In this document: in pieces, positions 15,287 to 37,257 of the stretch
Layout: each line of letters begins with the position of its first letter
How positions within the stretch are numbered: position 1 is the stretch's first letter
Source of the DNA: a candidate division WOR-3 bacterium
GTDB lineage: Bacteria > Hydrothermota > 32-111
Direction of reading: 5' to 3'
Length of the DNA: 64,000 bases
Assembly: GCA_037481815.1 (NCBI GenBank)
Contig: JBBFKX010000002.1
Coordinates: forward strand, 15,300 to 79,299
The notes under the pieces: model-generated
Database searches by the model: none
Seen by the model: the letters and a program-made list of their open reading frames with translations, nothing else
Told to the model about the DNA's origin: nothing
Translations under genes and position numbers: made by a program

Positions 15287-15341
15287 ATCCCCCTCCTGAC
15301 AGCGAAATAACCATCAAATTTTTTATAATAATTAGAAAAAT

Positions 15342-16469
15342 TCATAATTTCCATTTAACAGGTATTTTTACAAAACCCAAATGTGTTTTTTTTGCTCCAT
15401 CAACCTCAAATGAAGAAGCAAAATCTATATGATCGTAAGGAAATCTGTTATGAACATCATAGAATGCAATGGAAATATAATATTTACCTGGATTCAGGTT
15501 TACTGGATTGAAAGAAAAACTTATTTCACCATAATCTTTGAGATCAACATATCTCCCTTCATAATCATAGATGTTTGGACCAGATATCACATTTGAAAAT
15601 TGATCGGTTATTGAAAACCCAAAGATTCCCTTATCAACTTTTCCATTTTTTTTATACCTGACCTTAAAAGATATTTCCTTTCGTTCGAAAGAAGAATATC
15701 TATTGTTTTCGCATAATATTTCAACTATCTCTATCTCTCTGCTTCCTCTTCTTATTATATTTTTTGATGGATCATTCTCTTTTTTCGAAAGATAATTTGA
15801 AACAACATCTTCCGGATTTCCAATATCAACGATCTCACCATTTTCAAGAAGTGCTACCCTGTCCGAAAATCTTGAGATCAGTCCCATATCATGTGAAACA
15901 AAAAGTATTGTAACTCCTTCATTTTTTAGATTCTCAACTTTTTCAAGACATTTCCTCTGAAAATGGATATCTCCAACAGCAAGTACTTCATCTATAATGA
16001 GTATCTCTGGATTTGAAAATATGGCAACAGAAAATCCCAATCTGATATACATCCCCGTTGAATACTCTTTTACCTTCATATCAACATAATTTCCCAATTC
16101 TGAAAACTCTAGAATCTTATCGTATATCGAGTTTATATATTTTTTTGAAAATCCCATAATCGTTCCATAAAGAAAGATGTTCTCCTTACCAGATAACTCA
16201 GGGTTGAATCCAATTCCAAGACCAAGGAAGGGAGAAACTTTACCATAAACCCTTACTGTACCTTTATCAGGTTTTAATATTTTTGAAACTATCGATAATA
16301 GAGTTGTTTTCCCGGAACCATTGGCACCTATTAAAGAAAAAAACTCGTTTTTCGAAACATCAAAGGAAATATTTTTTAATGCCTCAATTTTTTTCTTTTT
16401 AAAAAAACCAACATTGGGATAGTATGTTAAAGCAACATCTTTTAAAGATATAACAATGTTACTTTTCAT
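15342..16469 (-). CDS. polysaccharide ABC exporter ATP-binding protein (Wzt/TagH-like) with C-terminal extra domain
   Basis: Walker A GANGSGKTT, signature LSGKEN-like region, Walker B IIDEVLAVGD; about 130-aa C-terminal extension as in Wzt. Confidence 0.8.
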   Translation of the reverse strand: MKSNIVISLKDVALTYYPNVGFFKKKKIEALKNISFDVSKNEFFSLIGANGSGKTTLLSIVSKILKPDKGTVRVYGKVSPFLGLGIGFNPELSGKENIFLYGTIMGFSKKYINSIYDKILEFSELGNYVDMKVKEYSTGMYIRLGFSVAIFSNPEILIIDEVLAVGDIHFQRKCLEKVENLKNEGVTILFVSHDMGLISRFSDRVALLENGEIVDIGNPEDVVSNYLSKKENDPSKNIIRRGSREIEIVEILCENNRYSSFERKEISFKVRYKKNGKVDKGIFGFSITDQFSNVISGPNIYDYEGRYVDLKDYGEISFSFNPVNLNPGKYYISIAFYDVHNRFPYDHIDFASSFEVDGAKKTHLGFVKIPVKWKL

Positions 16470-17218
16470 AAACTCTTAACCATCCTATCCTCATAAATGT
16501 TGAATATAAGATATCCAATAAGTACAAAAATTATTGCGAAGAAAATGGAATTTATAGTAACTGTTACATCTGGTAGATTTGAATAAAAAAGTATATTCTG
16601 GATCCCTATAACATAAACAGCAACAGGGTTTATAAGATACAGGTGAATAAAATTGTATGGCACGAGTTCAAATGGGTAAAATACTGGACATAGAAAAAAT
16701 AATGCCTGAACAAGTATCTCCCATCCTGCCTTAACATCTTTGAAAAAAACATAAATTATGGAAAGAATTGTTGATATACCAAAAAGAAAAAATGAAAATA
16801 TTATAATGTAAGGAATAAAAAACAGAGAAATAAAAGGAAAAGATTTGTTTATAACGATATAGAAAATTATGTAAATCACATATTCAAAAAAAACTATTAT
16901 AAGATTTGAAATAACAAGTGATAATGGTAAAATCAACCTTTCGATCTTAACCTTTAAAATCAATTCTCTGTTTCTGTGGAATAACTGTAAGGATTGTGTT
17001 GTTGTATTGACAAAAAATCTCCATAAAGTTGTTCCAGCAAGAATAAAAAGTGGATAATTTTTCATGTTGAATCTCATAAACCTGTTAAAAACGATATAGA
17101 TTATGATCATCAAAAAGAGAGGTTCAAAAATTATCCAGAAAAAGCCCAACAATGAATTTTTATATTTCGTTTTAAGATCTGATTTTATGAGTTCAACTAT
17201 TAGATCAAGATTTATCAT
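16466..17218 (-). CDS. ABC-2 type polysaccharide exporter permease (Wzm/TagG-like)
   Basis: 250 aa, about 6 TM helices, translationally coupled to the Wzt-like ATPase. Confidence 0.7.
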   Translation of the reverse strand: MINLDLIVELIKSDLKTKYKNSLLGFFWIIFEPLFLMIIIYIVFNRFMRFNMKNYPLFILAGTTLWRFFVNTTTQSLQLFHRNRELILKVKIERLILPLSLVISNLIIVFFEYVIYIIFYIVINKSFPFISLFFIPYIIIFSFFLFGISTILSIIYVFFKDVKAGWEILVQALFFLCPVFYPFELVPYNFIHLYLINPVAVYVIGIQNILFYSNLPDVTVTINSIFFAIIFVLIGYLIFNIYEDRMVKSL

Positions 17219-17270
17219 AAATGTATTTTAACAGAGATTGTTTATCAGTCAAGAATATAATCGGGTTGTA

Positions 17271-17299
17271 TTGACTATTTAACTATGTTATGTTATAAA
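17271..17299 (+). promoter_or_regulatory. sigma70-like promoter (TTGACT, 17-nt spacer, TATAAA) upstream of dapB
   Basis: TTGACT at 17271-17276 and TATAAA at 17294-17299 in the divergent intergenic region; the ATG of dapB is at 17306, so the leader would be very short. Confidence 0.3.
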
Positions 17300-17305
17300 T
17301 AAATT

Positions 17306-18091
17306 ATGATAAGAGTTGGAGTTAATGGTTGTGCTGGAAAGATGGGAAGCATCTTATGCTATAAGATCCTTCATGAGGATGATATTGTATTGACTGAAGC
17401 TTTTGAAAAAGCAGGTTCAGAATTTATTGGAAAGGACCTTGGAATAGTTCTTGGTATAGAAGAGTGGAAATTGAATATAAAAGAACTCTCAGTATCTGAA
17501 AAATACAAAATGGATATACTTGTAGATTTTTCAACGGAAGAGGGATTTTTAAATTCTCTTGAGTATTCTTTTACCCAAAAAATTCCTTTCATCTCCGGAA
17601 CAACCGGACTTTCAGAAGAAAGTTTAAAAAAAATGAAAAATTATTCTAAAGACATTCCAATCCTATACTCATCAAATATGTCAACTGGTATAAACTCGAT
17701 TTTAAACGCCCTGGAAGATATGAAAGATATTCTTAATGACAGGAAAAGAGATATTGAAATTATTGAGTACCATCATAACAAAAAAAAGGACTCACCAAGC
17801 GGAACAGCACTTATGATCGCAGAAAAAATATCAGAACTTACAAAAAGAGGCATCAACAAAACTGGAACAGTAAACTTTCCAAGAAACGATGAGATAAGGA
17901 TACATTCTTTAAGGCTTGGGGAAATATATGGTTATCATAAAGTGATAATCTCGGGAAACGGTGAAACAATCGAAATATCACATACAGCATTATCAAGAGA
18001 AACTTTTGCGAATGGAGTTATTCAAAGCATAAAGTTTTTATCGGACAAAAAGAATGGCTTATACTCGCTTTCAGACATCAAAAGGAGTTAA
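17306..18091 (+). CDS. dapB: 4-hydroxy-tetrahydrodipicolinate reductase
   Basis: 261 aa; N-terminal GxxGxxG-like NAD site (VGVNGCAGKMGS); position in a lysine operon. Confidence 0.8.
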   Translation: MIRVGVNGCAGKMGSILCYKILHEDDIVLTEAFEKAGSEFIGKDLGIVLGIEEWKLNIKELSVSEKYKMDILVDFSTEEGFLNSLEYSFTQKIPFISGTTGLSEESLKKMKNYSKDIPILYSSNMSTGINSILNALEDMKDILNDRKRDIEIIEYHHNKKKDSPSGTALMIAEKISELTKRGINKTGTVNFPRNDEIRIHSLRLGEIYGYHKVIISGNGETIEISHTALSRETFANGVIQSIKFLSDKKNGLYSLSDIKRS

Positions 18092-18092
18092 A

Positions 18093-19238
18093 ATGTTCTC
18101 TCAAAATCTTGAAAAACTTCCACCGTACCTTTTTGATCAAATAGATAAAATGAAAAAAAGTATAAAAAATCCTATAGATTTTGGTGTGGGAGATCCAGAT
18201 CTACCAACCCCAAAAATCATCGTTGATGAGATGATCAAAAATGTTAAAAAATCGGAATACCACAAATATCCCCCATATGAAGGCATTTCTGAATTAAAAA
18301 AAGAGATCTCGATATATTTTAAAAACAGATTCTCAGTGAAAGTTGATCCAGAAAAAGAGATACTAGTTTTAATAGGTTCAAAAGAAGGTATCGCACATTC
18401 ACTTGAAGCATTTATGAATAAAGGAGATAAAGTTTTTATACCTTCAATATGCTATCCGGTTTACAAAAATCAAACGATTTTAAAAGGTGGTATTCCCATA
18501 GAATACAGGATAAGTTATGAAAACAAATTCATACCTGATATAGAGGAAATAAAAAAGAAGATAGACAAAAAAACAAAAATTCTTTTTTTAAACTTTCCGA
18601 ACAATCCAACGGGAACAAAGGTCCAAAAAAGATTTTACGACGATATATACGAACTGTGCTCGAAAAAAAATATATTCGTGTTAAACGATAATGTTTATTC
18701 TGAAATATATTTTGATGATGATCCTCCCCCATCTTTTTTAGAATCAGATAAAAACAAGGATATATCCTGTGAGTTTCACTCTTTTTCGAAGATTTTCAAT
18801 ATGACGGGCTGGAGGATTGGCTTTATGGTTGGAAATCAAAAAATGATCGAGACGGTAAAAAAAATAAAAACGAACACAGATTCTGGAGTTTTTATTCCAA
18901 TCCAGTTAGCTGCCGTTAAAGGTTTAAAAAACTTTGAAAAGATTAAAAAAGATAACATAAAGGTTTACAAAAAAAGGATGGATATCCTTTCACAGGAACT
19001 TTACAGAAAAGGTTTTGAATTCCATAAACCGGTTGCAACTTATTACCTTTTCTCAAAAACCTTGAAAAATATGGATTCCCTATCTTTTACAAAATTACTT
19101 TTACAAAAAACTGGTATAGTTACAACTCCCGGCATAGGTTTCGGAAAAGATGGTGATAGGTTTATCAGATTTTCTATAACTTTAAACGAAAAAGATTTTT
19201 ATAGAGGAATAGAAAAAATAAAAAGATTAAAAATTTAA
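18093..19238 (+). CDS. dapL: LL-diaminopimelate aminotransferase (class I aminotransferase, DapL-like)
   Basis: LPPYLF motif near N-terminus, PLP-lysine region SFSKIFNMTGWRIG; start moved to the internal ATG at 18093 to avoid overlap with dapB. Confidence 0.7.
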   Translation: MFSQNLEKLPPYLFDQIDKMKKSIKNPIDFGVGDPDLPTPKIIVDEMIKNVKKSEYHKYPPYEGISELKKEISIYFKNRFSVKVDPEKEILVLIGSKEGIAHSLEAFMNKGDKVFIPSICYPVYKNQTILKGGIPIEYRISYENKFIPDIEEIKKKIDKKTKILFLNFPNNPTGTKVQKRFYDDIYELCSKKNIFVLNDNVYSEIYFDDDPPPSFLESDKNKDISCEFHSFSKIFNMTGWRIGFMVGNQKMIETVKKIKTNTDSGVFIPIQLAAVKGLKNFEKIKKDNIKVYKKRMDILSQELYRKGFEFHKPVATYYLFSKTLKNMDSLSFTKLLLQKTGIVTTPGIGFGKDGDRFIRFSITLNEKDFYRGIEKIKRLKI

Positions 19239-20414
19239 ATGGCTTTAATAGTAAAAAAATTTGGCGGGACATCTCTTGCAACGCCAGATCTTATAAAACA
19301 TCTTGCAAAAAAAGTTGCTCTGGATATTAAATCCGGAAACAAGGTTGTTGTTGTTGTTTCTGCAATGGGTAAAACAACAAACGAACTTATATCGATGGCT
19401 AAATCCTTAACCTCAAATCCCGATCAAAGAGAAATGGATATGCTATTAACAGCAGGCGAGAGGATATCGATGTCATTGTTTTCGATGGCTTTGAATTCCC
19501 TTGATATAAAAGCATACTCTTTCACAGGTTCTCAGGTTGGAATCATAACAACATCAACTCACACTGATGCTAAAATTATTACCGTAAAAGGTGAAAGGTT
19601 ACTTGAAGCGTTATCAAATGGAATAACACCAATAATTGCTGGATTTCAAGGGGTATCTTCTACAAAAGAGATCACAACTCTTGGAAGAGGCGGTTCGGAT
19701 ACAACCGCGGTTGCAATAGCGGCTTTTTTGAAAGCTGATCTGTGTGAGATCTATACTGATGTTGATGGAGTCTATAAAGTTGATCCAAGGATTATCCCTG
19801 AATCAAAAATAATTAAAAAAATATCCTATGATGAGATGCTTTTGATGTCACATTTGGGTTCGAAAGTTTTACATCCAAGATCCGTTGAGATCGCTAAAAA
19901 ATATAAAATACCGATTGTTGTAAAATCATCTTTTAATGAAGGAGAAGGAACAATGGTAACCAACATTGAAAACATTGAATCTCCAGGTATAAACAGTATA
20001 AGCGTAAAGGATGATCTCGCGCTTGTTAATATGAAAACTGGAGATTTGGGTCTTGTTAAATTTTTGAATGATCTAAACGAAAAAGATTTGAAAATCGAAC
20101 TGTTTATTACAAAAAGTTTGGAAAATATTTCACTTGTGATCTCCCAGGATAAAGTCAACGATCTTTTACCTCTTGTTGAAAACTTTTCAAACTCATTGAG
20201 TATCAGCAGTGATATCTCTTTAATATCACTTATCGGAGAAGGTATTTCAGAGGATAAAAACATTATCAAAACAATAATCGAAATAGTTTCAAAATATGAT
20301 AAGGATATATTTGGAATATTCACCAACAAAATTTCTTACACGATAGTTACTAAAAGGGCTTACAAAGAAAAAATTGTTAAAGAGGTAGGTAAAAGATTTG
20401 AACTTATCAAATAG
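19239..20414 (+). CDS. lysC: aspartate kinase
   Basis: N-terminal KFGGTSL and VVVVSAMGKTTNEL motifs; 391 aa. Confidence 0.85.
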   Translation: MALIVKKFGGTSLATPDLIKHLAKKVALDIKSGNKVVVVVSAMGKTTNELISMAKSLTSNPDQREMDMLLTAGERISMSLFSMALNSLDIKAYSFTGSQVGIITTSTHTDAKIITVKGERLLEALSNGITPIIAGFQGVSSTKEITTLGRGGSDTTAVAIAAFLKADLCEIYTDVDGVYKVDPRIIPESKIIKKISYDEMLLMSHLGSKVLHPRSVEIAKKYKIPIVVKSSFNEGEGTMVTNIENIESPGINSISVKDDLALVNMKTGDLGLVKFLNDLNEKDLKIELFITKSLENISLVISQDKVNDLLPLVENFSNSLSISSDISLISLIGEGISEDKNIIKTIIEIVSKYDKDIFGIFTNKISYTIVTKRAYKEKIVKEVGKRFELIK

Positions 20415-21375
20415 AAATGTGAATATCGCTCTTGTAGGAGCAACAGGTCTTGTTGGAAGAGAATTTTTAAAACTTGTTGAAGAAAGGGATTTCCCTTTTA
20501 AACAGTTGTATCTTTTTTCTTCAAAAAAAAGTGCTGGAACAAAATTTAAAGTAAAAGGTAAAATCCATACTGTTAAAGAGTTTGATAAAGATGATTTTCA
20601 AAATATAGATCTTGCATTCTTTGCTACTTCTGCGGAAGAATCCACAAAATATATAGAAGAGATTAAAAAATTTAAAACGGTTTGCATAGACAACTCTTCA
20701 GCTTTCAGATTGAAAAAAAATATTCCCCTTGTGGTCCCTGAGATAAATTTTCATATGATAAAAAGTAGAACAAAAATAATAGCTAATCCAAACTGTTCTA
20801 CGATACAACTCGTTTTGGTATTAAACAGTTTGTTAACAATTGAAAAAATACATTCCGTGAACGTTTCAACATACCAGGCGATATCAGGTGCAGGGAAAGA
20901 TGCTTTGACAAAATTCTTTGAACAAAAAGATGGTAGATATAAAAAGGGAGAACCAGTTTTTTTCAATAACCTAATACAACACATCGGGAATTTTAATCAA
21001 GATTGGTGCGAAGAGGAAAATAAAATAATCAACGAAACAAGGAAAATTTTAAACGAAAAGAGTTTAAATGTTTCTGCAACAACCATTAGAGTTCCTGTTA
21101 TAAATTCTCACACTGAGGTTGTTATGGTAGAGTTTAAAAGAAAAATTGATTTCAAAAAGGTAGTTGAAGTCCTTCAAAAAACCCCATATCTGATACTGTT
21201 AAAAGAAACCGACCCTATCTCTGTCTCTGGAACCAACCTTGTTTTTGTTTCCCGCCTAAGAAAAGATAAATTCTTAGATAACAGAATCCATTTTGTTATT
21301 ACTGCGGACAACCTAAGAATAGGTGCTGCCCTCAACGGTATAAAAATAGCCGAAAGGATAATATATGAAAGTTAA
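20398..21375 (+). CDS. asd: aspartate-semialdehyde dehydrogenase
   Basis: VGATGLVG NAD motif; active-site region NPNCSTIQL; the ORF-track start is a TTG overlapping lysC, and an in-frame GTG at 20416 is an alternative. Confidence 0.85.
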   Translation: MNLSNRNVNIALVGATGLVGREFLKLVEERDFPFKQLYLFSSKKSAGTKFKVKGKIHTVKEFDKDDFQNIDLAFFATSAEESTKYIEEIKKFKTVCIDNSSAFRLKKNIPLVVPEINFHMIKSRTKIIANPNCSTIQLVLVLNSLLTIEKIHSVNVSTYQAISGAGKDALTKFFEQKDGRYKKGEPVFFNNLIQHIGNFNQDWCEEENKIINETRKILNEKSLNVSATTIRVPVINSHTEVVMVEFKRKIDFKKVVEVLQKTPYLILLKETDPISVSGTNLVFVSRLRKDKFLDNRIHFVITADNLRIGAALNGIKIAERIIYES

Positions 21376-22525
21376 AATAATTTTTTTGATTTTGTTTCTT
21401 ACAAACATTTACCTTTTTTCTGCTTTCGATGACGCAATCATTGTTTCTGAAATAAATATAGATTCAACCAATTTCCCCTATTTAAATTTGAATATTGAGA
21501 TCCCATCTAAGGATATAATTTTTTTAAAGGATAGTTTAGGATATTTTTCAAAAATAAACATCATATTCACCTTTTTAAAAGGAAATGATAATCCCATACT
21601 TTCAAAAGAAATAGATACAACAATAAAATATGATACTTTCCCATCATCCATTGATACGCTGATAATAAAATTTAAAAACATTTCTTTAAATGTTCCAGAG
21701 GAAACAAAAAAATTGGTAATAAGTATTCTCGACAAAAAAACCGATAGATCAAAAAATTTTATTTTTAAAGTCGAGATACCAAAGATACCACAGACAGGCA
21801 ACTATCTTAAAAGTTTTTCAATAATAAATGGAACAAATGGTTCATTTTTCGCTGGAGAAACGATAAAAGTTGAAACTAAATTATTTAAAAGGAATGAGAA
21901 ACAGGGAAACTACAATCTTTTGATAATCGATCAAAACGAAAGGATAGTTTTCAAGAAAAAGTTCGCTTCTAAAAATTTAACTGATACCCTTTTGATAATC
22001 AAGGAACTTTATGGTGGGAAATACAGGTTGAAAATCGAATATATTGAAGATAATAAAATCACAAATTTTCTAACAAAAGACCTGTTTATAAAATTCTCAT
22101 TCATAAACTCGGAAAATGAATTCCAGGATATTTTAAACGCTTTATCTTATATCGCTAAATGGGATGAATTAGATAAACTGAAAAAATCCACAAAAGAAAA
22201 TAGAGAGGAAGAATGGAACAGGTTCTGGATAAAACAGATTTCAGAACCTATTATAACAACGAATATTTCTTATGCTGAATTTATGGAGAGGTACAACTAT
22301 TCGAATAAAAATTTTTCAGGATTCAAAAAAGGTTATAGAACAGATTTTGGAAGGATATATATAATTTATGGGAAACCTGATGAAATTGAAAGACATCCAT
22401 TTGATAAAGATAGTAAGCCATATGAGATCTGGTACTATTACAAAAACAACATACAGTTTATCTTTGTTGATGTAAATGGCTACGGAGAATATGTTCTACA
22501 GAATTATCTTGAACAGTTGAGGTGA
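21365..22525 (+). CDS. secreted GWxTD-like domain protein
   Basis: Signal peptide; C-terminal WNRFW...GYRTDFGRIYIIYGKPDE...YEIWYY segment resembles the GWxTD domain signature. Confidence 0.5.
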   Translation: MKVKIIFLILFLTNIYLFSAFDDAIIVSEINIDSTNFPYLNLNIEIPSKDIIFLKDSLGYFSKINIIFTFLKGNDNPILSKEIDTTIKYDTFPSSIDTLIIKFKNISLNVPEETKKLVISILDKKTDRSKNFIFKVEIPKIPQTGNYLKSFSIINGTNGSFFAGETIKVETKLFKRNEKQGNYNLLIIDQNERIVFKKKFASKNLTDTLLIIKELYGGKYRLKIEYIEDNKITNFLTKDLFIKFSFINSENEFQDILNALSYIAKWDELDKLKKSTKENREEEWNRFWIKQISEPIITTNISYAEFMERYNYSNKNFSGFKKGYRTDFGRIYIIYGKPDEIERHPFDKDSKPYEIWYYYKNNIQFIFVDVNGYGEYVLQNYLEQLR

Positions 22526-23841
22526 ATATGAGAATTTTTAAAATTTTGATTTTGACACTTTTTTCAATAAATGTTTTTGCAAACTATGATGTATCGATTA
22601 CATCTTTTAAAGCAAAAGATAACATACATCAAATATTTTATGATATCCAGTTCTACGCAAAGGATATCACGTATAAAAATGTCGATGGAAAAAATACCGG
22701 GATTCTACATTTTAAAATTTTTGTTAAAAACCTTGAAACATCACAGGAAATATATGATGAATGGAATTCAAAATCTTATATTTCACAATCTGAACAACTC
22801 AACAGAGAAATGTTCCTTCTCGATCGATCATCTTTTATCCTCTCTCCTGCAAAATATGAAATAAGAAGTTTGATAGTTGATTCTTTTTCAAAAAAGGAGT
22901 TTTCAAAAATCGATACGATAATTTTAGAAACTTTTGACAGTAAACCAACAATTTCAAATATACTTGTAGGATACACCGTAAAAAAAGATTCTCTTGAAGG
23001 TAAATTTACAAGAAACGGATATTCAGTTACTCCAAATCCATCAAAAATATTTACTCTTGTGAACCCTTTGATTTATCTGTATTTTGAAATTTATAATTTA
23101 CACAACAAAGAATATACTCTTGATTACCTTATATACAATGATAAAGATTCATTGATCACAACAATAAAAGGTGAAAAGAAAATATCGCCTCCTTTCGATT
23201 TTGTTGTGAATAACTTTTTCAACACTCTTGGTTTTAAAGATGGAAAGTATAGATTGGATGTCAAAATAAAATATGATGATAAAGAAATTCTTCAATCAAC
23301 AAATTTTGAAAAAATTTCAAACCTCTATACAGGCAGAGAAACCAAATATATTCTAACAGAAGAGGAAATGAAATATTATTCTTTAATAGATTATATTGCA
23401 ACTCCTTCCGAGTTAACACAGTTCAAATCCATAAAAGATGAAAAAGCAAAACATAATTTCCTTCTAAATTTCTGGGAAAGGAGAGATATCGATAAAACAA
23501 ACGATAAACTCGAATCTTTGAAAGATTTTATCTTAAAAGTTAAATATGTCAGAAAAAATTTTTCATCGGGTGGAGAAGATGGCTATCTTTCAGCGAGAGG
23601 AAGGATATATTTAAAATATGGTCCACCGGATGAAACATTACTTGTTCCGATGAGTAAAGGATCAAAAAATTATGATTCCTGGATTTATTATTCGAAAGGT
23701 GGCATGCAGTTCATCTTTATGGATATAAAAGGATTTGGTAAATATGAACTTATATATACAAATGTTATGGAAGAGGAGATACCACAAAATTGGACAAATT
23801 ACATTGACGATTACAATATAATCCAATTTTATAGAAATTAA
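22522..23841 (+). CDS. secreted GWxTD-like domain protein (paralog of upstream gene)
   Basis: Signal peptide; C-terminal FWERRD...GYLSARGRIYLKYGPPDE...YDSWIYY segment parallels the upstream gene. Confidence 0.5.
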   Translation: MNMRIFKILILTLFSINVFANYDVSITSFKAKDNIHQIFYDIQFYAKDITYKNVDGKNTGILHFKIFVKNLETSQEIYDEWNSKSYISQSEQLNREMFLLDRSSFILSPAKYEIRSLIVDSFSKKEFSKIDTIILETFDSKPTISNILVGYTVKKDSLEGKFTRNGYSVTPNPSKIFTLVNPLIYLYFEIYNLHNKEYTLDYLIYNDKDSLITTIKGEKKISPPFDFVVNNFFNTLGFKDGKYRLDVKIKYDDKEILQSTNFEKISNLYTGRETKYILTEEEMKYYSLIDYIATPSELTQFKSIKDEKAKHNFLLNFWERRDIDKTNDKLESLKDFILKVKYVRKNFSSGGEDGYLSARGRIYLKYGPPDETLLVPMSKGSKNYDSWIYYSKGGMQFIFMDIKGFGKYELIYTNVMEEEIPQNWTNYIDDYNIIQFYRN

Positions 23842-23842
23842 A

Positions 23843-25414
23843 ATGAAAAATTTTGATATTATTGTTGTAGGTTCAGGAATCGCTGGTTTAACTTTCGCAT
23901 TCAAGATTGCACCTTATGTTAACAATGTTTGTTTGATAACCAAGAAAAGTATTGAGGACTCAAACACAAACTATGCTCAGGGAGGAATCGCTGCTGTTTT
24001 TGGAGAAGATGATTCTTTTGAACTTCATATAAAGGATACTATCGAAACGGGAAGATATCTATCACATAAGGATGCTGTTGAGATAATGGTTATGAACGGT
24101 CCCAAACTCGTTCTGGAACTCAAAGAACTTGGAGCAAAATTTGAAATAGATGAAAATGGGAAATTTAAACTTGGTAAAGAAGGTGGGCATTCAAGAAGAA
24201 GGATTGTTCATGCCGGCGATTATACGGGATATGAAATTGAAAAAACACTTATAGAAAATATAAAAACCTACAACAATGTTTTGATGTTCACCAACCATTT
24301 TGTCTGTGATCTGATCGTTGATGAAAACAACCTATGCCAGGGTGTTTATGTTCTCGATGTTGAAAAAAATGAGATAGAGCCATATTTCTCTCAGTTCGTG
24401 GTGATCGCAACAGGCGGATGTGGTCAGGTTTACAAATTTACAACAAATCCCATGATCGCAACAGGTGATGGTATTGCGGTTTCATATCTTGCAAATGCCA
24501 AAATAGCAAACATGGAGTTCTTTCAATTTCATCCTACAGCTTTATACAACTCCGAAGAGATGGGGAGATCTTTTTTGATCTCCGAAGCTGTGAGAGGTGA
24601 AGGAGCATTTTTAAAATTGAAAGATAACAGGCAATTCATGCATAAATACAGCGAAAAAAAATCTCTTGCTCCAAGAGATATCGTTGCAAGAGCCATAGAT
24701 AATGAATTAAAACTTTCAGGAGAAGATTTTGTTTACCTTGACCTCTCTCCTTTCACAGAGAAAAAATTTAAAGAAAGATTTCCCAAAATATATGAAAAGT
24801 GTAAACAGATGAACATAAATGTTCCCTATGAACCGATACCTGTTGTTCCAGCAGCACATTATTCGTGTGGTGGTATTTATACTGATACAAATGCAAGGAG
24901 TTCTATTAAAAACCTCTATGCAATAGGTGAAGCCGCATGTACGGGAGTTCATGGAGCAAACAGATTGGCATCAAATTCATTGCTTGAAGCTCTTGTTTTC
25001 GCTGATCAGGCCTTTCGTGATGTGAGGGAAAAATTGAAAGAACCTTTTGAAACCACTGTTCCAGGATTTTACAGTCAGCCAAAACCTATAGATCAAGAAA
25101 CAAGGAAAATTTTGTTCGAATTGAGAAGAAAACTTAAAGAGATAATGTGGAAGAAGGTTTCAATCGTAAAAACTGTAAAATCTTTAAAAGAAGCTGATGA
25201 GCAACTAAACATTCTATCAGAAACATTTTTCAATCTTGAAAATTACAATACTGTTGAATATTTTGAGGTCAGAAATATGATAATAGTTTCAAAAATTATA
25301 ATAAACTCAGCACTCAAAAGAAAAGAATCGAGAGGATTACATTTTGTAAAAGATTATCCTGAAGAGAAAAAGGAATATTTACATGATACAATTATTCAAA
25401 AGGAGGTTTTATGA
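23843..25414 (+). CDS. nadB: L-aspartate oxidase
   Basis: FAD-binding N-terminus IIVVGSGIAGL, flavoprotein core (HYSCGGI, RLASNSLLEALVF); 523 aa. Confidence 0.85.
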   Translation: MKNFDIIVVGSGIAGLTFAFKIAPYVNNVCLITKKSIEDSNTNYAQGGIAAVFGEDDSFELHIKDTIETGRYLSHKDAVEIMVMNGPKLVLELKELGAKFEIDENGKFKLGKEGGHSRRRIVHAGDYTGYEIEKTLIENIKTYNNVLMFTNHFVCDLIVDENNLCQGVYVLDVEKNEIEPYFSQFVVIATGGCGQVYKFTTNPMIATGDGIAVSYLANAKIANMEFFQFHPTALYNSEEMGRSFLISEAVRGEGAFLKLKDNRQFMHKYSEKKSLAPRDIVARAIDNELKLSGEDFVYLDLSPFTEKKFKERFPKIYEKCKQMNINVPYEPIPVVPAAHYSCGGIYTDTNARSSIKNLYAIGEAACTGVHGANRLASNSLLEALVFADQAFRDVREKLKEPFETTVPGFYSQPKPIDQETRKILFELRRKLKEIMWKKVSIVKTVKSLKEADEQLNILSETFFNLENYNTVEYFEVRNMIIVSKIIINSALKRKESRGLHFVKDYPEEKKEYLHDTIIQKEVL

Positions 25415-25698
25415 ACATAAGAATTACAGGTAAACATCTTGAAATTTCACCAGAAATAAAAAATTTTATTGAAGAATCCTTAAAACACCTTGAAAAATTT
25501 GAACATAATATAATCGATTGTAATGTAGTGGTCGAATTGAATGGAAGAAGATATAAAGTCGAAATAGATGTTGATGTAAAAAAACATAGATTCGTTTCTT
25601 CAGATGAATCTTTCGATCTCATGACATCGATAGATAAAGCGATTGATAAAATGAAAACCCAGCTTAAAAAGTTTGAGGAGAAAAAACATGACAGATAA
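25411..25698 (+). CDS. hpf: ribosome hibernation-promoting factor (HPF/RaiA family, short form)
   Basis: 95 aa; MNIRITGKHLEISPEIK N-terminus is the classic HPF start. Confidence 0.8.
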   Translation: MNIRITGKHLEISPEIKNFIEESLKHLEKFEHNIIDCNVVVELNGRRYKVEIDVDVKKHRFVSSDESFDLMTSIDKAIDKMKTQLKKFEEKKHDR

Positions 25699-26686
25699 TG
25701 TAAAACAAAGAAGTGAGTTGAGCGTAGAAGACCTTTTTAAAGACAACAAAGAGGAATTAGTTTTGAAAGTGGTGTCAGGGAACAACGGGATGACAAACCT
25801 TATTAAAAGCAAAGAGGTTATAAATGCTGGACTCGCTTTTGCAGGATATACAGAACATATTCAAAAAAGCTCCATAATAGTTGCCGGTGATGTAGAACTT
25901 GATTTTTTTAACAACCTGAACAGTTCAAAGAGAAAGCTCTTTTTAAACTCAATCTTTGAAAAAGGATGTGCTGCTTTATTTATCGTAACTGAAAGAAATA
26001 TCCCTAAAATAATAAAAATACTTTCAAACAAAAAAGGTATCCCGGTTATTACAAGTAATAAAACTATATACAATACGATAAATAAACTCTCACTTTACCT
26101 TTCAAGCAAACTTGCTGAATCGATAACAAAACATGGAACACTTGTAGATATTTATGGTGTTGGAGTTTTACTTACAGGCAAAAGTGGAATCGGGAAAAGT
26201 GAGTGTGCTCTTGATCTTGTAGATAGAGGTCATCGTCTCGTTGCTGATGATGCTGTTAAAATTTATAAAAGAGGAGAGCATATTTTAATGGGAACAGGGA
26301 TTGCACCTGATTCGTCAATCCAATATCATATGGAAGTCAGAGGTGTCGGAATACTCGATATAGCCAAAATATTTGGGATAAGAGGTGTCAGATTGCACAA
26401 AAGAATCGAGATTGAGATAAACCTGATAGAATGGAAACCTGACACTGATATCGAAAGGGTCGGACTCAAAGAGGAAACATCCAACATTCTCGGAGTCGAA
26501 ATCCCTTTAGTTAAAATACCACTTTTACCAGGTAAAAATATTTCAGTTATAGCAGAAGTTGTAGCACTTAACCATCTTTTAAAAATTTCAGGTTATGACA
26601 CGAGCAAGGTCTTCAATGCTACACTGATAAAACTTATGCAGGAAAAAGCAAAAAAACTGGCAAGACTTGATGAGGACGAAGAATGA
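25673..26686 (+). CDS. hprK: HPr kinase/phosphorylase
   Basis: P-loop GKSGIGKSE followed by LVADD; 337 aa; the start may instead be the ATG at 25688. Confidence 0.85.
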   Translation: MRRKNMTDNVKQRSELSVEDLFKDNKEELVLKVVSGNNGMTNLIKSKEVINAGLAFAGYTEHIQKSSIIVAGDVELDFFNNLNSSKRKLFLNSIFEKGCAALFIVTERNIPKIIKILSNKKGIPVITSNKTIYNTINKLSLYLSSKLAESITKHGTLVDIYGVGVLLTGKSGIGKSECALDLVDRGHRLVADDAVKIYKRGEHILMGTGIAPDSSIQYHMEVRGVGILDIAKIFGIRGVRLHKRIEIEINLIEWKPDTDIERVGLKEETSNILGVEIPLVKIPLLPGKNISVIAEVVALNHLLKISGYDTSKVFNATLIKLMQEKAKKLARLDEDEE

Positions 26687-27063
26687 TATACGGAATTTTT
26701 ACAGGTCATAACAATTTTGCATACGAAACAGTTAAAAGCTGCGAAAGTATAATCGGTGATCAGCAAAACTATTCAACAATTTCAAACAGAGAACTTTCAA
26801 ACGATGAGATCTATGAGCAGTTTGAAAAAATTTTAAAAACTCATCCTGATTGTAAAGAGTTTTTCATATTTATAGATTTCTATGGCTCTTCAATCTCACT
26901 TCCTGCAATAAAGATTAAACAGAAAACAGAAAAGGAAACAATTAAACTCATATTCGGGTATAATCTTCCGATGGTTATCGATTTTTTTCTTCACAGGAAT
27001 AAATTGACTGGAGAACAACTTTTCGAAAAAATCATCGATGTTGGAAAAAGAGGTATAAGATGA
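26683..27063 (+). CDS. PTS EIIA component, mannose-family-like (orphan, regulatory)
   Basis: 126 aa; N-terminal IFTGHNNFA with the conserved His position of EIIA-Man; no EIIC/EIID in the window. Confidence 0.6.
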   Translation: MIYGIFTGHNNFAYETVKSCESIIGDQQNYSTISNRELSNDEIYEQFEKILKTHPDCKEFFIFIDFYGSSISLPAIKIKQKTEKETIKLIFGYNLPMVIDFFLHRNKLTGEQLFEKIIDVGKRGIR

Positions 27064-27530
27064 AAATATTAAGGATAGATGACAGGTTGATCCATGGACA
27101 GATAATCGCTGGATGGCTACCAAATCTTGGTATTTCAAACATTTTGCTTTTCAACGAATCTTTACCTTTAGATATGTTACAGATCTATAAAAATATGATA
27201 CCGGAAGATGTAAATCTCCAGATTATTGATATAAATCATATTGATATGATCCCTGATAAAAACTCTTCCATATACCTTTTTGAAAATATAAAAACCTTAA
27301 AAAATAATTTGAACAAACTTGAAAATATCAGTTTTGACATTTTTAATCTTGGTGGAATGAGGAACAAAGATAACAAACAAAAAATCTTGGATTTTATTTA
27401 TATGGATGAAACAGATATAGAAGATTTCTTCGCTATAGTAAAAAGTTTGAAATTAAAAAAAATCAACGCTCAACAGTTGCCAACAACACAATCTTATGAT
27501 ATAAAGAGAATTCTCGAAAGAAGGAGTTGA
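27060..27530 (+). CDS. PTS EIIB component, mannose/sorbose-family-like (orphan, regulatory)
   Basis: N-terminal [10 protein letters not shown] motif containing the phosphorylatable His of EIIB-Man/Sor. Confidence 0.65.
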
Positions 27531-27531
27531 G

Positions 27532-29202
27532 ATGAAAAAGAAAAATAGGACAAGAAGTTTACTGACAACTATAATCATCACAGTTATTCCCTTTTATGTT
27601 GCTTTCCTATTCATCATTCTTTTCTTTATCGAATACAGAAACATTTCACATCATAACAAAGATACTGAGGATTATTTTAGAAGTATAATGGATAACTATT
27701 CATTTTCATCAGCAAATTACATCCAGAGAGATGATACAAATGGTATATTAATCATATTAAACAATTTTTTAAAAATGCCTGACTTTAAATTTGCTCTGGT
27801 TCTTGATTCAAACCTTCAAATATTCAACTATCTGAAGAGCGATAATAAAAATGAAATGATCATCTCAAAAGAAATCGCTAAAAATTCTATACAAGATCTG
27901 AAGATTTTAAAAGAGTTTAACAAAAATCTTCTAATCGATGTCTATTATTCACCTATATATTATGAAATGAACGGAGAAAGAAAACCTTTAGGTGTTCTCT
28001 GTGTCGGTTTATCAAGAGGTGAAAATGTAAATGCGATAATAAGTATACTCCTTCAGACATTTGCGATAATAGCGGTTTCGCTTATTCTATTTTTCCTGAT
28101 TTTACTCCTTCTTTACAGAAGAATAAAAAATCCTATAGCGATGATAACACAGGAGATGAAACAGATAAATGAGGGAAAGGGTAATATAGAAAACCGTAAA
28201 ATAACCGTAGAAGCAGAGAGAGAAATAAATGAGTTGATCGAGGAGTTCAACAAGGTTCTTGATTTTCTTTATAATATAAAAAATAATGTTTCGATCATAA
28301 CAAACCAATTAAATGAACACATTGAACTTTTATCATCTTCATCTGAGGAACTAACCGCCTCATCGGAAGAAATCACTTCAACGATCCAGGAAATTTCTCA
28401 GAATTCCTCTGAACAGGCAAAAAAAATCGAAGAGGTTTTCCAGAAAACAGAATCAACAAAATCAAGTATAAACACATCTTTTGATAAAACAAAGATGAAC
28501 GAGGAATTCTCTTCAAAGATTAACGAAGTCACAATCACAGGAAAAGAACTATCAAAAAAAGCTGTTGAAAAGATTGAAACAATCATAAACAGTTCGAATG
28601 AACTTTATGAAAAAATAAAAGATATAAATGAAAAACAGGAAAAAATATCTATAATAACCGACACTATAGAATCGATAACCAACAGAACAAACATTTTATC
28701 ACTCAACGCATCGATTGAAGCTGCAAGAGCTGGAGAGTATGGAAAAGGATTTCAGGTTGTAGCAGAAGAGATAAGAAAACTTGCTGAAAAATCCCAAGAA
28801 TCTGCGTTGGCTATACATGGAATAATAAATGAAATCAAAAGTTCAATAGAAATACTCATAAATCAAAGTAGATCAAACGAATTTGTCCTTAACGAAGGGA
28901 AAGATGTAATCATGAATACATCCGAGGTTCTTGAAAATATAAGCAACAGCATATCTTCAATAACCGAAAACAATAAGAGCATCTCAAATGAAATTAAAAA
29001 TGTAAAAGCGATTATAGATGAGTTCAGTTTAACGATAAACGAGGTGGTAAAAATCTCCGAGACAAACGCTTCAGCAAGTGAGGAGATCGCTGCAAGTATA
29101 GAACAACAGGGAGCTTCAATAGAAGAGTTGGCTTCAAGTGCCCAACAACTTTATGAAATAATCGGAAAACTTAAAGATATAGTTAATAAGTTTCAGGGAT
29201 GA
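27532..29202 (+). CDS. methyl-accepting chemotaxis protein
   Basis: Two TM segments flanking a ~150-aa periplasmic region, HAMP, highly conserved signalling segment [33 protein letters not shown]. Confidence 0.85.
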
Positions 29203-29203
29203 A

Positions 29204-29791
29204 TCACAACCTTTGAAGGATCATCTTTGAAACAGCTTTGAGTGTTTCAAACACACCGATTCCCTGAGTTGCAACCGCTTCAAAATATGGTACATTCCAG
29301 GGATTCAACGCCTGTTGTAGATCCTCTATCGATGAAATATTCGGTAGATCCCTTTTGTTGTACTGCATTACAAATGGGATGTCTTCTATTTTAAGGTTAT
29401 GCTCAGCAAGATTTTCAAGAAGATTGTCAACACTTTCTATGTTATCTTCAAACCTTTCAATCTGTGAATCAGCAACAAATACTATTCCATCAACTCCTTT
29501 AAGGATCAATTTTCTTGATGCGTTATAATAGATTTGCCCTGGCACGGTGTAAAGTTGAAATTTTGTTTTAAAACCTTTTACTGAGCCAATATCCATAGGT
29601 AAAAAATCAAAAAACAAAGTCCTGTCCATCTCTGTTGCAAGAGAGATCATCTTTCCTCTTGTCTCTGGACTTATCTTGTTGTATATCACTTTCAAATTTG
29701 TTGTTTTCCCTCCTAAACCTGTTCCATAGTAAACTATCTTAAATGTTATCTCTCTTGATGAGTAATTAATAACTGACAACTTTTCCTCCAA
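29204..29791 (-). CDS. mglA: Ras-like small GTPase MglA
   Basis: 195 aa; near-identical signature blocks to MglA ([56 protein letters not shown]). Confidence 0.85.
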
Positions 29792-29793
29792 TT

Positions 29794-30291
29794 TTACTTG
29801 AACAGATCATCAAGTTCACTTTCTGCTGCCTTTTTGAAATCTTCGTTAAAAGTATCTTTCATTCTTTCTGTGTTACTGCTCAATTTAGCAAATATATTGT
29901 TGAAAATCCTTTCGAGTTCAGTAACAGTTGTTTTGATTCTTATTCTGATAAGTCCAAGGTTTGTGGTTTTACCAAAAATAACAACGAGGATTATTCTTGA
30001 TAGAATTATTGTTATATAAATATTTTCCTGTTTACCCTGATGAAAAAGTTCTGTAAACTCATCTTCACCTATAAGTAATGCAAGTTGACTCGTTGCTGCA
30101 AAATCTGCTGCTGCAAGTGAGCCAAACGAAACAAGGTCAAGGTTTGAAATATTTCCAACAGAAGTAATAAGTTGTCCTGCCTTGTCGACAAGAAGTAGTG
30201 CAGTTGCGTTTGTCGATGTTAAAAGTTTGTTTAATGAGTTATTTATATCCCAGAAATCTTGTTCAAATATGCTCAGATTTTCATAACTCAA
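29794..30291 (-). CDS. mglB: Roadblock/LC7-domain protein, MglB-like GAP partner of MglA
   Basis: 165 aa; immediately upstream of and co-oriented with mglA; roadblock-like composition and size. Confidence 0.65.
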
Positions 30292-34913: not shown

Positions 34914-36619
34914 TAAAAACCTCCAATTAAAAAAATTAATATAATTAATAAAATAACCATTATAAAAGACGATATTAGAAAAATGTTAGAATACTTTAAG
35001 AATGTTCTTTCACTGAAATCTGAAATAAAAAGTATTTTATCATCTTTAGAATATACCAGTTCAAGATTTTCATTTTCTTTTCTTTCCATTAATTTTTTAT
35101 CGAAATCTTTTTCCATACTGATTTTTGCTATCTCCCATTCATCACTGTCTATTTGCTCATCTTTGTTAAGGTCAAAGTTTTTCATATAGTCATGGTCCAA
35201 TTTTTTTTCTTTAATAAATTCATTTTTCTCTTTCATATAATCTTTGTTCACAACAGAACCAACAACAAAAACTTCACTCATAACAGGTAAAATCTCTTCT
35301 TCGTATTTTACTTCACCAACATCTTCTGTTGAAAAAAATTTATAAAATGTCTTCGTATAAACCGTTTTATTCTTTAGATTGAATGTGGCATTTTCTGTTT
35401 TCACAGATATCCTGTTCCCGTGTTCATCCTGTACAATAAATTTTTCTGGCAGATACTCTCCAATATGTTCGAGTTGCCATTTTGTTTTTCCCTCACTATC
35501 CTTTACTTTTCTAAATTTTTTGTACTGAAAATACACACATTTTGTTCCTGAAATTGGGGATGGGATTGCATACTCATCGGTTATAAAACCCTTTATTTCA
35601 TTTATCCCAACACTGATCGATTCAATTTTTGAAAATGGTATCGATTCAAGAAAAACTTTAAGTTTGAAAACTTTCACAAATGAAATAAAATAATAGAAAA
35701 TCCCACCAAGAAAAATATAGGAAAGCAGGTTGATTTTACCTATTCTGAAAAGTATTAGAAAACTAAAAAAAATTATTCCAAAAGGTATAAAAAAAGTTTC
35801 CAGCAGATTAAATTTGTTTACAGGGATCCTTTTTTTCTTAAAAATCAGATCATTTGGTTTATAGATATTATATTTAAAATCATATACAAGGTTATTATAA
35901 TCCTTCGTTTTTTTTCTATCAACATATTTTTGGTCATATTCAAAAGAATAAATCCCTTCTTCAAAAAGCAAAGATGAAATCATTGAATATGTTTTTAAAT
36001 CAAAAAAAAGTTCTTCAACAAAATTTTCAGAGTAGTTCAAATCTTCATAAAAGACCGAAGAAAAATTTTTTAAGGATTCATAAAATTTAAAAAAATTTTC
36101 ACTTTTCGAATACTTTGAAAAATTTTTAAGATTTGTATAATTTATCCTTTCCTGCTCAAATTTCAAAAGTATATTTTTTTCATGGGAATACAAGTAGAAT
36201 TCAAAATTTGACTGTAACAGTAGTTTTTTTAAATTAACATTTTCAATTCTTGTTTTATCAATTCCAGCCAAAAAAAGCAACCTATCATTTTTAGAGATTG
36301 TTATCTCACCTTTTTCAGTAAAAAATTTATATGCCTGTTCATCATACCTAAAAGTGGACACATCTGCAACCTTTATAGATGAGATATCATGATCTGAAAG
36401 TACAACAGATTTAATATTAATGGAATTCAGTAAATCTTTAATCTTTTCTAACTCTTCCTTATTTTCAGATCTTTTTAATACAGCCCAACCTTTTCCAATA
36501 AATTTCTGTTTTAGGGTATAAACATCGATTTTGGTAGTATGAAAAATTTGTTCAAAAAATTCTTTGTCAACGGATTCTGTTCTATCAAAGATACATTTTA
36601 TAAAAAGTTTAAACTCCAT
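34913..36619 (-). CDS. large membrane protein, C-terminal half GIDE-like (TM pair, ~220-aa domain, terminal TM); N-terminal 265 aa unassigned
   Basis: Start codon overlaps the LemA stop (translational coupling); topology TM-TM-soluble-TM fits bacterial GIDE-domain proteins known to pair with LemA; assignment from architecture only. Confidence 0.4.
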   Translation of the reverse strand: MEFKLFIKCIFDRTESVDKEFFEQIFHTTKIDVYTLKQKFIGKGWAVLKRSENKEELEKIKDLLNSINIKSVVLSDHDISSIKVADVSTFRYDEQAYKFFTEKGEITISKNDRLLFLAGIDKTRIENVNLKKLLLQSNFEFYLYSHEKNILLKFEQERINYTNLKNFSKYSKSENFFKFYESLKNFSSVFYEDLNYSENFVEELFFDLKTYSMISSLLFEEGIYSFEYDQKYVDRKKTKDYNNLVYDFKYNIYKPNDLIFKKKRIPVNKFNLLETFFIPFGIIFFSFLILFRIGKINLLSYIFLGGIFYYFISFVKVFKLKVFLESIPFSKIESISVGINEIKGFITDEYAIPSPISGTKCVYFQYKKFRKVKDSEGKTKWQLEHIGEYLPEKFIVQDEHGNRISVKTENATFNLKNKTVYTKTFYKFFSTEDVGEVKYEEEILPVMSEVFVVGSVVNKDYMKEKNEFIKEKKLDHDYMKNFDLNKDEQIDSDEWEIAKISMEKDFDKKLMERKENENLELVYSKDDKILFISDFSERTFLKYSNIFLISSFIMVILLIILIFLIGGF

Positions 36620-36690: not shown

Positions 36691-37257
36691 ATGTATAAAA
36701 AAGAGATTGAAAGAAGGTTTCTTGTTATCGATAAAAACTATTCTAAAAAGATATCATTTTTTAACAGGAAAAGAATAATTCAGGGATACTATAGGTCCGA
36801 GGATTTAAAAAAAATAAAAGGTGTTGATGAAATTTTAAAAAAAAATCCTGAATTTATAAATAAAATCGTTAGAATAAGAATTGAAAATAAAAGAGATATC
36901 TTTTTTACACTAAAAAAAGGTGAAGGAATTGAAAGGGATGAATTTGAAATAAAACTTGATTTCGATGAAAAAATTTACAAATTTATGAAAAGTGATAAAA
37001 AAGTTCTGTCAAAAATAAGAGGAGAATTTTTCATTGAAGGATATAAAGCAATTTTAGACAGATATACCAAAAGATACAGAGGGATTGAAATAGTTGAAAT
37101 CGAATTTAAAACCGAACCCGAAGCAAAAAAGTTTCAACCTTCAAAAAGCTTAGTCGAGATAACCAATCTTAATGAGTTATCAAATATGAGTCTCTATTTT
37201 AAGGATGAAAAAGAAATAATTAAAAAAGTTGAGGAGAATTATGGTTATAAAAATTAA
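36691..37257 (+). CDS. CYTH-domain protein (triphosphate tunnel metalloenzyme-like)
   Basis: N-terminal EIERRFLV matches the CYTH ExExK-type start; 188 aa. Confidence 0.55.
   Translation: MYKKEIERRFLVIDKNYSKKISFFNRKRIIQGYYRSEDLKKIKGVDEILKKNPEFINKIVRIRIENKRDIFFTLKKGEGIERDEFEIKLDFDEKIYKFMKSDKKVLSKIRGEFFIEGYKAILDRYTKRYRGIEIVEIEFKTEPEAKKFQPSKSLVEITNLNELSNMSLYFKDEKEIIKKVEENYGYKN

Follow-up and report, generated by a model that had tools for sequence, protein, structure and literature searches.

Stand-alone mannose-family EIIA and EIIB genes behind hpf and hprK in a candidate division WOR-3 bacterium: a cut-down form of a widespread phosphotransferase cluster

The pairing of hprK, the gene for HPr(Ser) kinase/phosphorylase (HprK/P), with a mannose-type EIIA of the phosphoenolpyruvate:sugar phosphotransferase system (PTS) has been described for the alpha-, beta- and delta-proteobacteria and for Xanthomonas (PMC2405797, PMC6916182). 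An ancestral proteobacterial rpoN cluster with ptsK (hprK), EIIA-Man, ptsH and ptsI was proposed by Comas, Zúñiga and colleagues, who suggested that most lineages lost IIB, IIC and IID from it while Desulfovibrio vulgaris retains them (PMC2405797). Pelobacter carbinolicus has a IIA-IIB-IIC-IID-PtsH-PtsI set, compared with which the PTS of Geobacteraceae is described as 'vestigial' (PMC3543383), while Xanthomonas has ptsN-hprK-...-EIIA-Man-ptsH-ptsI without EIIB or EIIC (PMC6916182). In Brucella and Rhizobium, hprK-manX-ptsO without a permease forms an experimentally working relay with EIIA-Man as the terminal phospho-acceptor (PMC2937029, PMC13104625). Here, a related locus is described in a 64-kb stretch of DNA (the window) from a candidate division WOR-3 bacterium (GCA_037481815.1, contig JBBFKX010000002.1). 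Its region 25,411-27,530 has four co-directional and tightly packed open reading frames (ORFs) encoding the ribosome hibernation-promoting factor (hpf), HprK/P, and an EIIA and an EIIB of the mannose family, followed by a transmembrane chemoreceptor (MCP).

This locus is a cut-down, EIIB-retaining version of a cluster common in many phyla and not a new system. With a probability of about 0.48, it would encode a HprK-EIIA-EIIB relay detached from any permease, in which the phosphorylation of EIIA and EIIB is itself a signalling output on carbon and energy status. A literature search on the PTS of WOR-3 or Caldithrix found nothing specific, and no description was found of EIIB kept with EIIA while IIC/IID are not adjacent.

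Parent cluster and the four proteins

One scan of species-representative genomes with an EIIB alignment gave 80 loci, which were annotated by local profile searches with position-aware rules. The window EIIB is nearest to the EIIBs of hprK-linked clusters. hprK was found just upstream of EIIA-EIIB in 47 of the 72 loci having at least 2 kb of upstream sequence; a mannose-type EIIA beside hprK, taken for unusual in an earlier reading of the window from sequence only, is actually the rule, here as in the literature (PMC2405797, PMC6916182). For 36 hprK-linked loci, 5.5 kb or more of downstream sequence was available; in 31 of them IIC and/or IID together with HPr and EI come directly after EIIB. 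The other five end after EIIB and belong to WOR-3 (L012, L013), Calditrichaceae (L015) and KSB1 (L024, L072), the genes that follow being mutually unrelated (MCP, MlaD or a sodium:solute symporter on the opposite strand).

The recurrent full cluster, rpoN-hpf-ptsN-hprK-rapZ-(yvcK)-EIIA(Man)-EIIB(Man)-IIC-IID-ptsH-ptsI, was found in Elusimicrobia, Nitrospirota, Gemmatimonadota, Firestonebacteria, Goldbacteria, Riflebacteria and Spirochaetia, one further example having been obtained independently. RapZ between hprK and EIIA in other phyla was confirmed by Pfam, and rpoN, ptsN and rapZ lie next to hpf/hprK in relatives such as L016, L017, L025 and L060. The Ntr-type EIIA (ptsN) of the full cluster sits between hpf and hprK, additional to EIIA-Man, and is missing in the window locus.

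Further reduced forms were reached through HprK homologues. These include hpf-hprK-EIIA in WOR-3 L094, with neither an EIIB nor an EIIB remnant downstream of EIIA, rpoN-...-hpf-hprK-HPr-EI in TA06 (L096) and rpoN-hpf-hprK-MlaD in Zixibacteria (L097). The Calditrichaceae locus L015 has hpf-hprK-EIIA-EIIB-MlaD, and because the downstream MlaD is common to Zixibacteria, this order suggests an old break after EIIB in that group. Since 47 of 72 EIIB loci are hprK-linked and 31 of 36 continue with IIC/IID-HPr-EI, and given the graded series of reduced forms, the window quartet is best read from its gene order as the retained front half of an ancient PTS cluster of the rpoN/hpf region, cut right after EIIB in this WOR-3 family. 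Across phyla the series runs from the full transporter to hprK-EIIA-EIIB, hprK-EIIA, hprK-HPr-EI and hprK alone, and it offers natural experiments on the roles of HprK and mannose-class phosphocarriers outside Firmicutes.

Within WOR-3, the window gene run dapB-aminotransferase-lysC-asd-GWxTD-GWxTD-nadB-hpf-hprK-EIIA-EIIB-MCP, convergent with mglA-mglB and the genes for pyruvate:ferredoxin oxidoreductase (POR), is collinear in GCA_039804105.1 (L002, a 1.39-Mb contig; EIIB 87% identical), UBA6260 (L012), L004 and L013, the EIIBs of the last two being only 37-40% identical to that of the window. Three sister loci, L095, L092 and L093 (HprK 62%, 57% and 50% identical, respectively), have nadB-hpf-hprK-EIIA-EIIB directly convergent with mglA-mglB-POR. 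The window EIIB has a 100% identical match in a metagenome-assembled genome of a candidate division WOR-3 bacterium, and the EIIB relatives at 74-91% identity are all from WOR-3.

The hpf product matches TIGR00741 with 77.1 bits (cutoff 40.9) and has a dN/dS of 0.03-0.06; the gene is upstream of hprK in most of the related loci. HprK/P scores 313.4 bits against TIGR00679, whose equivalog cutoff is 240, and has both the N-terminal PF02603 and the C-terminal PF07475 domains. It aligns over residues 27-318, through both domains, with the solved Staphylococcus xylosus enzyme 1ko7 (E = 1.7e-58), compared with which the Walker A motif GKSGIGKSE, the signature MEVRGVGIL and the C-terminal phosphorylase region PGKNISVIAEVVALN are all conserved. 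The published signature consensus is (I/L/M)E(I/V)RG(I/L/M/V)G(I/V)(I/L/M) (PMC2937029). The dN/dS of hprK, against L002 and L012, is 0.03.

Both small proteins score above the Pfam cutoffs of their families, with 41.3 bits for EIIA (PF03610, cutoff 21.4) and 81.6 bits for EIIB (PF03830, cutoff 27), which agrees with their first identification, and both phosphorylatable histidines are present in the motifs then claimed. In EIIA, the predicted phospho-histidine His9, within IFTGH, is invariant and aligns with His10 of E. coli ManX in an alignment including E. coli IIA-Man, and Asp65, conserved in at least 90%, aligns with ManX Asp67. EIIA also matches the solved EIIA-Man 3lfh (E = 2.4e-10) and E. 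coli 1pdo (E = 2.6e-5). In EIIB, the predicted phospho-histidine His12 is invariant and aligns with E. coli His175, and R5, D7, R9, L10, G13, Q14 and W19 are invariant alongside it in two alignments including E. coli IIB-Man. EIIB matches E. coli IIB-Man 1vsq (E = 1.4e-10) as well as 1ble, and its AlphaFold (AF2) model has a pLDDT of 93.3; the ten best folds for this model in the PDB are all mannose-family EIIBs (TM 0.70-0.80), including 1ble, 1nrz, 3lfj, 1vsq, 3eye, 3p3v, 5t5d and 8yri. EIIA is below all NCBIfam trusted cutoffs (TIGR00824, 40 vs 98.35; AgaF, 61.7 vs 130; ManX, 42.9 vs 400), and EIIB scores 53.3 bits against TIGR00854, under the curated transporter-subunit cutoff of 163.6. Because these scores are well below the trusted cutoffs, the two proteins are classed by profile as divergent superfamily members and not as equivalogs of characterised transporter subunits.

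The dN/dS values against L002 and L012 are 0.05-0.12 for EIIA and 0.09 for EIIB. The catalytic His, Asp and Walker A residues are kept across about eight diverged WOR-3 lineages, and the catalytic His of EIIA and EIIB is invariant in all lineages examined, including those with only 24-42% EIIB identity. Judged by the low dN/dS and the invariant catalytic His, hpf, hprK, EIIA and EIIB are intact, under purifying selection and predicted to be functional rather than relics.

Some related loci carry additional features. The hpf-hprK clusters of TA06 and Zixibacteria still follow kdsA-kdsD-lptC-(lptA)-lptB-rpoN, as in E. coli. A GH57 alpha-amylase/4-alpha-glucanotransferase gene lies between EIIB and IIC in WOR-3 L038 (4233-6143) and in the unclassified metagenome contig L008 (8461-10620); the same insertion was deduced from an EIIB-IIC gap of about 2 kb in Elusimicrobia and Firestonebacteria, and also in L019, L020, L023, L027, L035, L039 and L045. 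The embedded GH57 hints at a tie between the hprK-linked mannose-class PTS and alpha-glucan or glycogen metabolism. In L094, hpf-hprK-EIIA is followed by a short repeat array with an 80-bp period (12734-12932; 2.5 copies matching at 81%), which may be a small CRISPR array; cas2, cas1, RAMP and cas6 genes come next (13184-19105). L092 has, about 1.4 kb upstream of dapB, a gene running off the locus (1-228, minus strand) for a 212-aa protein with a weak HTH_17 match and PTS_EIIA_2, which could, from these domains, be a PTS-regulated DNA-binding protein; no equivalent was found in the window.

Proposed relay, possible split transporter and the downstream chemoreceptor

Searches in all six frames with phmmer and hmmsearch found no HPr, EI, IIC, IID, RpoN, PtsN or YvcK in the window. 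RapZ was not found there either, so the adjacency of rpoN, ptsN and rapZ to hpf/hprK is absent, though hpf adjoins hprK. Of the 54 ORFs that reach 90 aa, 48 were scanned against Pfam, and these showed no PTS permease from any family, nor HPr, EI or a che gene; the remaining six (lysC, asd and four POR subunits) were named from the Pfam matches of their L002 orthologues. IIC (PF03609) and IID (PF03613) are absent from the window and also from the loci of seven related WOR-3 lineages, related loci being read with flanks of 10 kb. The earlier statement that no EIIC or EIID is present in the window is thus borne out; the word orphan, then applied to EIIA and EIIB, is shown to hold for the 64-kb window only. 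Other WOR-3 lineages have the cluster broken at differing points.

HPr was also sought outside the window. A search seeded with a WOR-3 HPr (L038) gave 237 close relatives of that HPr, none from the window lineage, and a search of cluster representatives gave 6378 HPr-like sequences, among the best 150 of which amino-acid composition singled out no candidate. In the window itself, a six-frame regular-expression scan for the HPr active-site motif was replaced by the phmmer and hmmsearch searches, because active-site variants such as GLHLRAA make such a scan too narrow. This variant, instead of the usual GLHARPA, is that of the HPr of a full rpoN-linked cluster (L008, 12151-12420), and simple motif searches may miss members of this kind.

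HprK is not known to phosphorylate proteins outside the HPr family. Since EIIA moreover needs a phosphodonor, HPr and EI are presumed to be encoded elsewhere in the genome. In the proposed relay, phosphoenolpyruvate would phosphorylate this EI, which would pass the phosphate to HPr, and from the HPr histidine it would be transferred to His9 of EIIA and then to His12 of EIIB. HprK/P would phosphorylate the regulatory serine of HPr according to metabolic state, throttling the phosphate flow. The readout of EIIA and EIIB phosphorylation would be either protein partners or the uptake of sugar through an IIC/IID encoded far away; in the detached case, EIIA would report carbon and energy status as ManX (EIIA-Man) does in the alpha-proteobacteria, and EIIB would be an extra terminal phospho-acceptor.

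A regulatory relay rather than a transport PTS, as first proposed for this locus, is a legitimate reading with strong proteobacterial precedent (PMC2937029, PMC13104625); however, a split transporter is a close rival. The detached relay is tentatively favoured because no partner was found in the 64 kb and because of the behaviour of EIIB. Deep WOR-3 pairs without exception have EIIB/HprK identity ratios of 0.46-0.72, vs 0.71-1.17 in permease-linked pairs of similar HprK identity; that this comparison covers one clade, with non-independent pairs and self-built alignments and local annotation, tells against leaning on it. EIIA has no comparable excess divergence relative to HprK in the WOR-3 clade. 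In 30 permease-linked EIIBs, 24 columns reach a conservation of at least 90%; among these, the WOR-3 clade keeps the whole catalytic loop but not two residues, a Pro invariant elsewhere and a Gly found in 90% elsewhere. A further argument for the relay is how often related phyla and proteobacteria have reduced forms with a purely regulatory role.

Several further points weigh on the other side. The genome measures about 1.4 Mb, and the absence of partners applies to the 64 kb of the window. The EIIBs of the Calditrichota and KSB1 loci ending after EIIB look fully canonical. Other WOR-3 (L038, L014, L028) keep IIB-GH57-IIC-IID-HPr-EI, continued by PGI and without an upstream EIIA or hprK in L038 and L014, so that the cluster is variously broken within the phylum. 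A single rearrangement moving IIC-IID-HPr-EI as a block would be more parsimonious than a rearrangement plus a deletion, and no signalling target of the relay was identified in this analysis. To our knowledge, the only established biochemical role of a mannose-family EIIB is phosphorylating sugar at IIC/IID.

Most of these points speak for a split but complete transport PTS. Its mannose-class IIC/IID would be encoded at another site of the genome, probably in one block with ptsH and ptsI and perhaps with GH57, and a rearrangement would have severed the operon of an otherwise ordinary sugar-uptake system, of which the window locus would be one half. This is a serious possibility, if rather short of an even chance. 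The 31 of 36 hprK-linked relatives indicate that this EIIA/EIIB subfamily is normally permease-coupled, dispersed forms exist in WOR-3 (L038 and L014 without EIIA and hprK; L094 without EIIB), HPr is common in the phylum, one rearrangement suffices, and EIIB fully retains its catalytic loop and fold at a dN/dS of 0.09. However, a working transporter subunit sits less easily with an EIIB whose divergence relative to HprK exceeds that in all the permease-linked pairs compared, with the Pro and Gly not kept, with EIIA and EIIB scores far under the NCBIfam trusted cutoffs, or with the lack of IIC/IID in the 64 kb.

A broader form of the relay reading is put forward more tentatively still, with the odds leaning against it. 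In a streamlined WOR-3 family, and perhaps in Calditrichota and KSB1, a mannose-family EIIB may have long been kept without any permease in the genome, as the end of a four-step soluble relay (EI-HPr-EIIA-EIIB) gated by HprK/P, with the histidine-phosphorylated EIIB signalling to a new target. In the sub-lineage of the window, this target could be the adjacent inserted motility and chemosensory genes. If there is indeed no permease, the idea of a regulatory PTS, documented for EIIA-Ntr and EIIA-Man in proteobacteria, would come to include an EIIB that ends the relay as a signalling phospho-acceptor, as well as candidate phyla without cultured members; if a permease lies elsewhere in the genome, the finding would be routine.

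The MCP has a PF00015 domain (114 bits) and HAMP, with two membrane segments and an external sensor region in the topology read from its sequence, and no PTS-related domain was found in it by Pfam; its dN/dS against L002 and L012 is 0.05. An MCP after EIIB was seen only in the window, L002, L012, L004 and L013 lineages, and is absent in L092, L093, L095, L015, L024 and L072, EIIB abutting mglA in the first three. The MCP is probably not part of the PTS module. The lower HprK identity of L092, L093 and L095 suggests a position for them outside the MCP-bearing lineages; if this holds, the MCP would by parsimony be a later insertion, made in the common ancestor of the window, L002, L012, L004 and L013.

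Chemotaxis that depends on the PTS is known from E. coli and B. subtilis, and the sequence-only reading had hinted at a coupling of carbon and energy status to chemotaxis through this gene. In such a coupling, phosphorylated EIIB or EIIA would signal carbon status directly to the downstream MCP. The MCP start codon comes 1 nt after the EIIB stop, with its Shine-Dalgarno site inside the end of the EIIB gene, and the EIIB-MCP adjacency is kept, with a 4-nt overlap, in L004 and L013 even at 37-40% EIIB identity. However, the three sister loci with the same quartet, as well as the Calditrichota and KSB1 loci, all lack the MCP; the adjacency does not count as independent evidence, given that the MCP-bearing genomes are collinear over the whole region; near-zero spacing is usual in this genome (37 of 42 same-strand neighbour pairs within 10 nt); the receptor is of ordinary two-segment topology without a PTS-related domain; and no che genes were found in the window. 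Direct coupling thus has no comparative support and is considered highly unlikely, with a small chance left for a link specific to this lineage.

That EIIA and EIIB are non-functional leftovers being lost, as the further-reduced forms without EIIB or without both genes (L094, L096, L097) and the fast EIIB divergence might suggest, is scarcely credible and appears largely refuted by purifying selection, with frames intact in at least eight lineages at EIIB identities down to 24-42%, invariant catalytic His, dN/dS of 0.05-0.12 and a confidently predicted fold.

Gene layout and other contents of the window

The assignments and coordinates given earlier to hpf, hprK, EIIA, EIIB and the MCP agree with the domain searches and ORF positions (Table 1).

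Table 1. Genes of the hpf-hprK-EIIA-EIIB locus and the chemoreceptor gene that follows (positions in the window)
Gene	Product	Length (aa)	Position	Strand	Profile match
hpf	Ribosome hibernation-promoting factor, short form	95	25411..25698	+	PF02482, 73.8 bits
hprK	HPr(Ser) kinase/phosphorylase	332 (from ATG)	25688..26686	+	TIGR00679
EIIA	Mannose-family EIIA, stand-alone phosphocarrier	126	26683..27063	+	PF03610
EIIB	Mannose/sorbose-family EIIB, stand-alone phosphocarrier	156	27060..27530	+	PF03830
MCP	Transmembrane chemoreceptor		27532..29202	+	PF00015 + HAMP

Read directly, three junctions (nadB/hpf, hprK/EIIA and EIIA/EIIB) have ATGA start/stop overlaps. The hpf ATG is preceded by an AAGGAGG Shine-Dalgarno site. 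The likeliest start of hprK is the ATG, with a GAGGAG Shine-Dalgarno site 7 nt upstream, the alternative being a TTG at 25673 that would give a product of 337 aa. The 4-nt overlaps first claimed hold for hprK/EIIA and EIIA/EIIB; hpf and hprK overlap by 11 nt from the ATG or by 26 nt with the TTG start, and the gap between EIIB and the MCP, given before as 2 nt, is 1 nt.

Such packing is general in this genome. The median gap between same-strand neighbours across the window is -4 nt, 26 of the 42 pairs overlap, and maximal ORF calls cover about 98.7% of the sequence. Twelve functionally unrelated genes, from dapB to the MCP (17306-29202), form one unbroken co-directional run. Gene overlap was considered as a sign of functional coupling and rejected, overlaps being usual here. 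Promoter and terminator scans of 16.8-30.5 kb gave counts not above those of shuffled controls and were uninformative on operon boundaries. The G+C content of the region is about 30%.

The rest of the window includes genes for the lysine branch and NAD biosynthesis, two GWxTD-type proteins, MglA/MglB, a four-subunit POR, a large region for polysaccharide biosynthesis and export, TamB and Omp85. The GWxTD-type pair (21365-23841, plus strand), conserved in all related WOR-3 loci, lies between asd and nadB and encodes proteins of about 390-440 aa in tandem, each with a hydrophobic N-terminal leader; the first matches GWxTD (PF20094) and the second does so only via its L004 orthologue. The MglA-like small GTPase and the MglB/Roadblock GTPase-activating protein (NF052242, 81 bits) are encoded at 29204-30291 on the minus strand, convergent with the MCP, with which they may form a motility-polarity module. 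An ORF of 1310 aa (50921-54850, minus strand) has no Pfam match, and the composition is strongly skewed at 52-54 kb (AT skew -0.43, GC skew -0.36). Other ORFs without a Pfam family at E <= 1e-4 are located at 34916-36619 (568 aa), 36691-37254 (188 aa), 38407-38778 (124 aa) and 3921-6194 (758 aa).

Comparison with known systems

The window locus has in common with the PTS cluster of the rpoN region the order hpf-hprK-EIIA(Man)-EIIB(Man) and a full-length HprK. However, it lacks rpoN, ptsN, rapZ/yvcK, IIC, IID, ptsH and ptsI, and is flanked by nadB upstream and by the MCP and then the convergent mglA downstream.

As in the regulatory PTS of the alpha-proteobacteria (hprK-manX(ptsM)-ptsO; Brucella, Sinorhizobium, Rhizobium), hprK adjoins a stand-alone EIIA-Man and there is no permease at the locus. 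In that system EIIA-Man is the terminal phospho-acceptor with a regulatory output, and HprK gates the relay. Unlike the window locus, it has no EIIB, and its HprK is without the N-terminal domain and the phosphorylase region; it has an adjacent NPr gene and a link to chvI/chvG, whereas the window locus is linked to hpf. The absence of a permease is genome-wide in the alpha-proteobacterial system and known from 64 kb in the window lineage.

The classical mannose-class transporters (E. coli ManXYZ, B. subtilis LevDEFG and Klebsiella SorFBAM) have the same EIIA and EIIB folds and phospho-histidine sites as the window proteins. In contrast, the window EIIA and EIIB are only about 20-28% identical to them, fall far under the NCBIfam trusted cutoffs, and are encoded without adjacent IIC/IID and in linkage to hprK and hpf instead of sugar catabolic genes.

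Mannose-family EIIBs also control sigma-54 activators, LevE acting on LevR in B. subtilis and MpoB/ManL on ManR in Listeria. Neither rpoN nor a regulator of the LevR/ManR type was seen in the window. EIIBs of the LevE/MpoB type are phosphorylated signalling phosphodonors, yet they are also parts of working transporters, and the sigma-54 link of the LevR/ManR systems parallels the ancestral sigma-54 neighbourhood of the hprK-EIIA-EIIB cluster.

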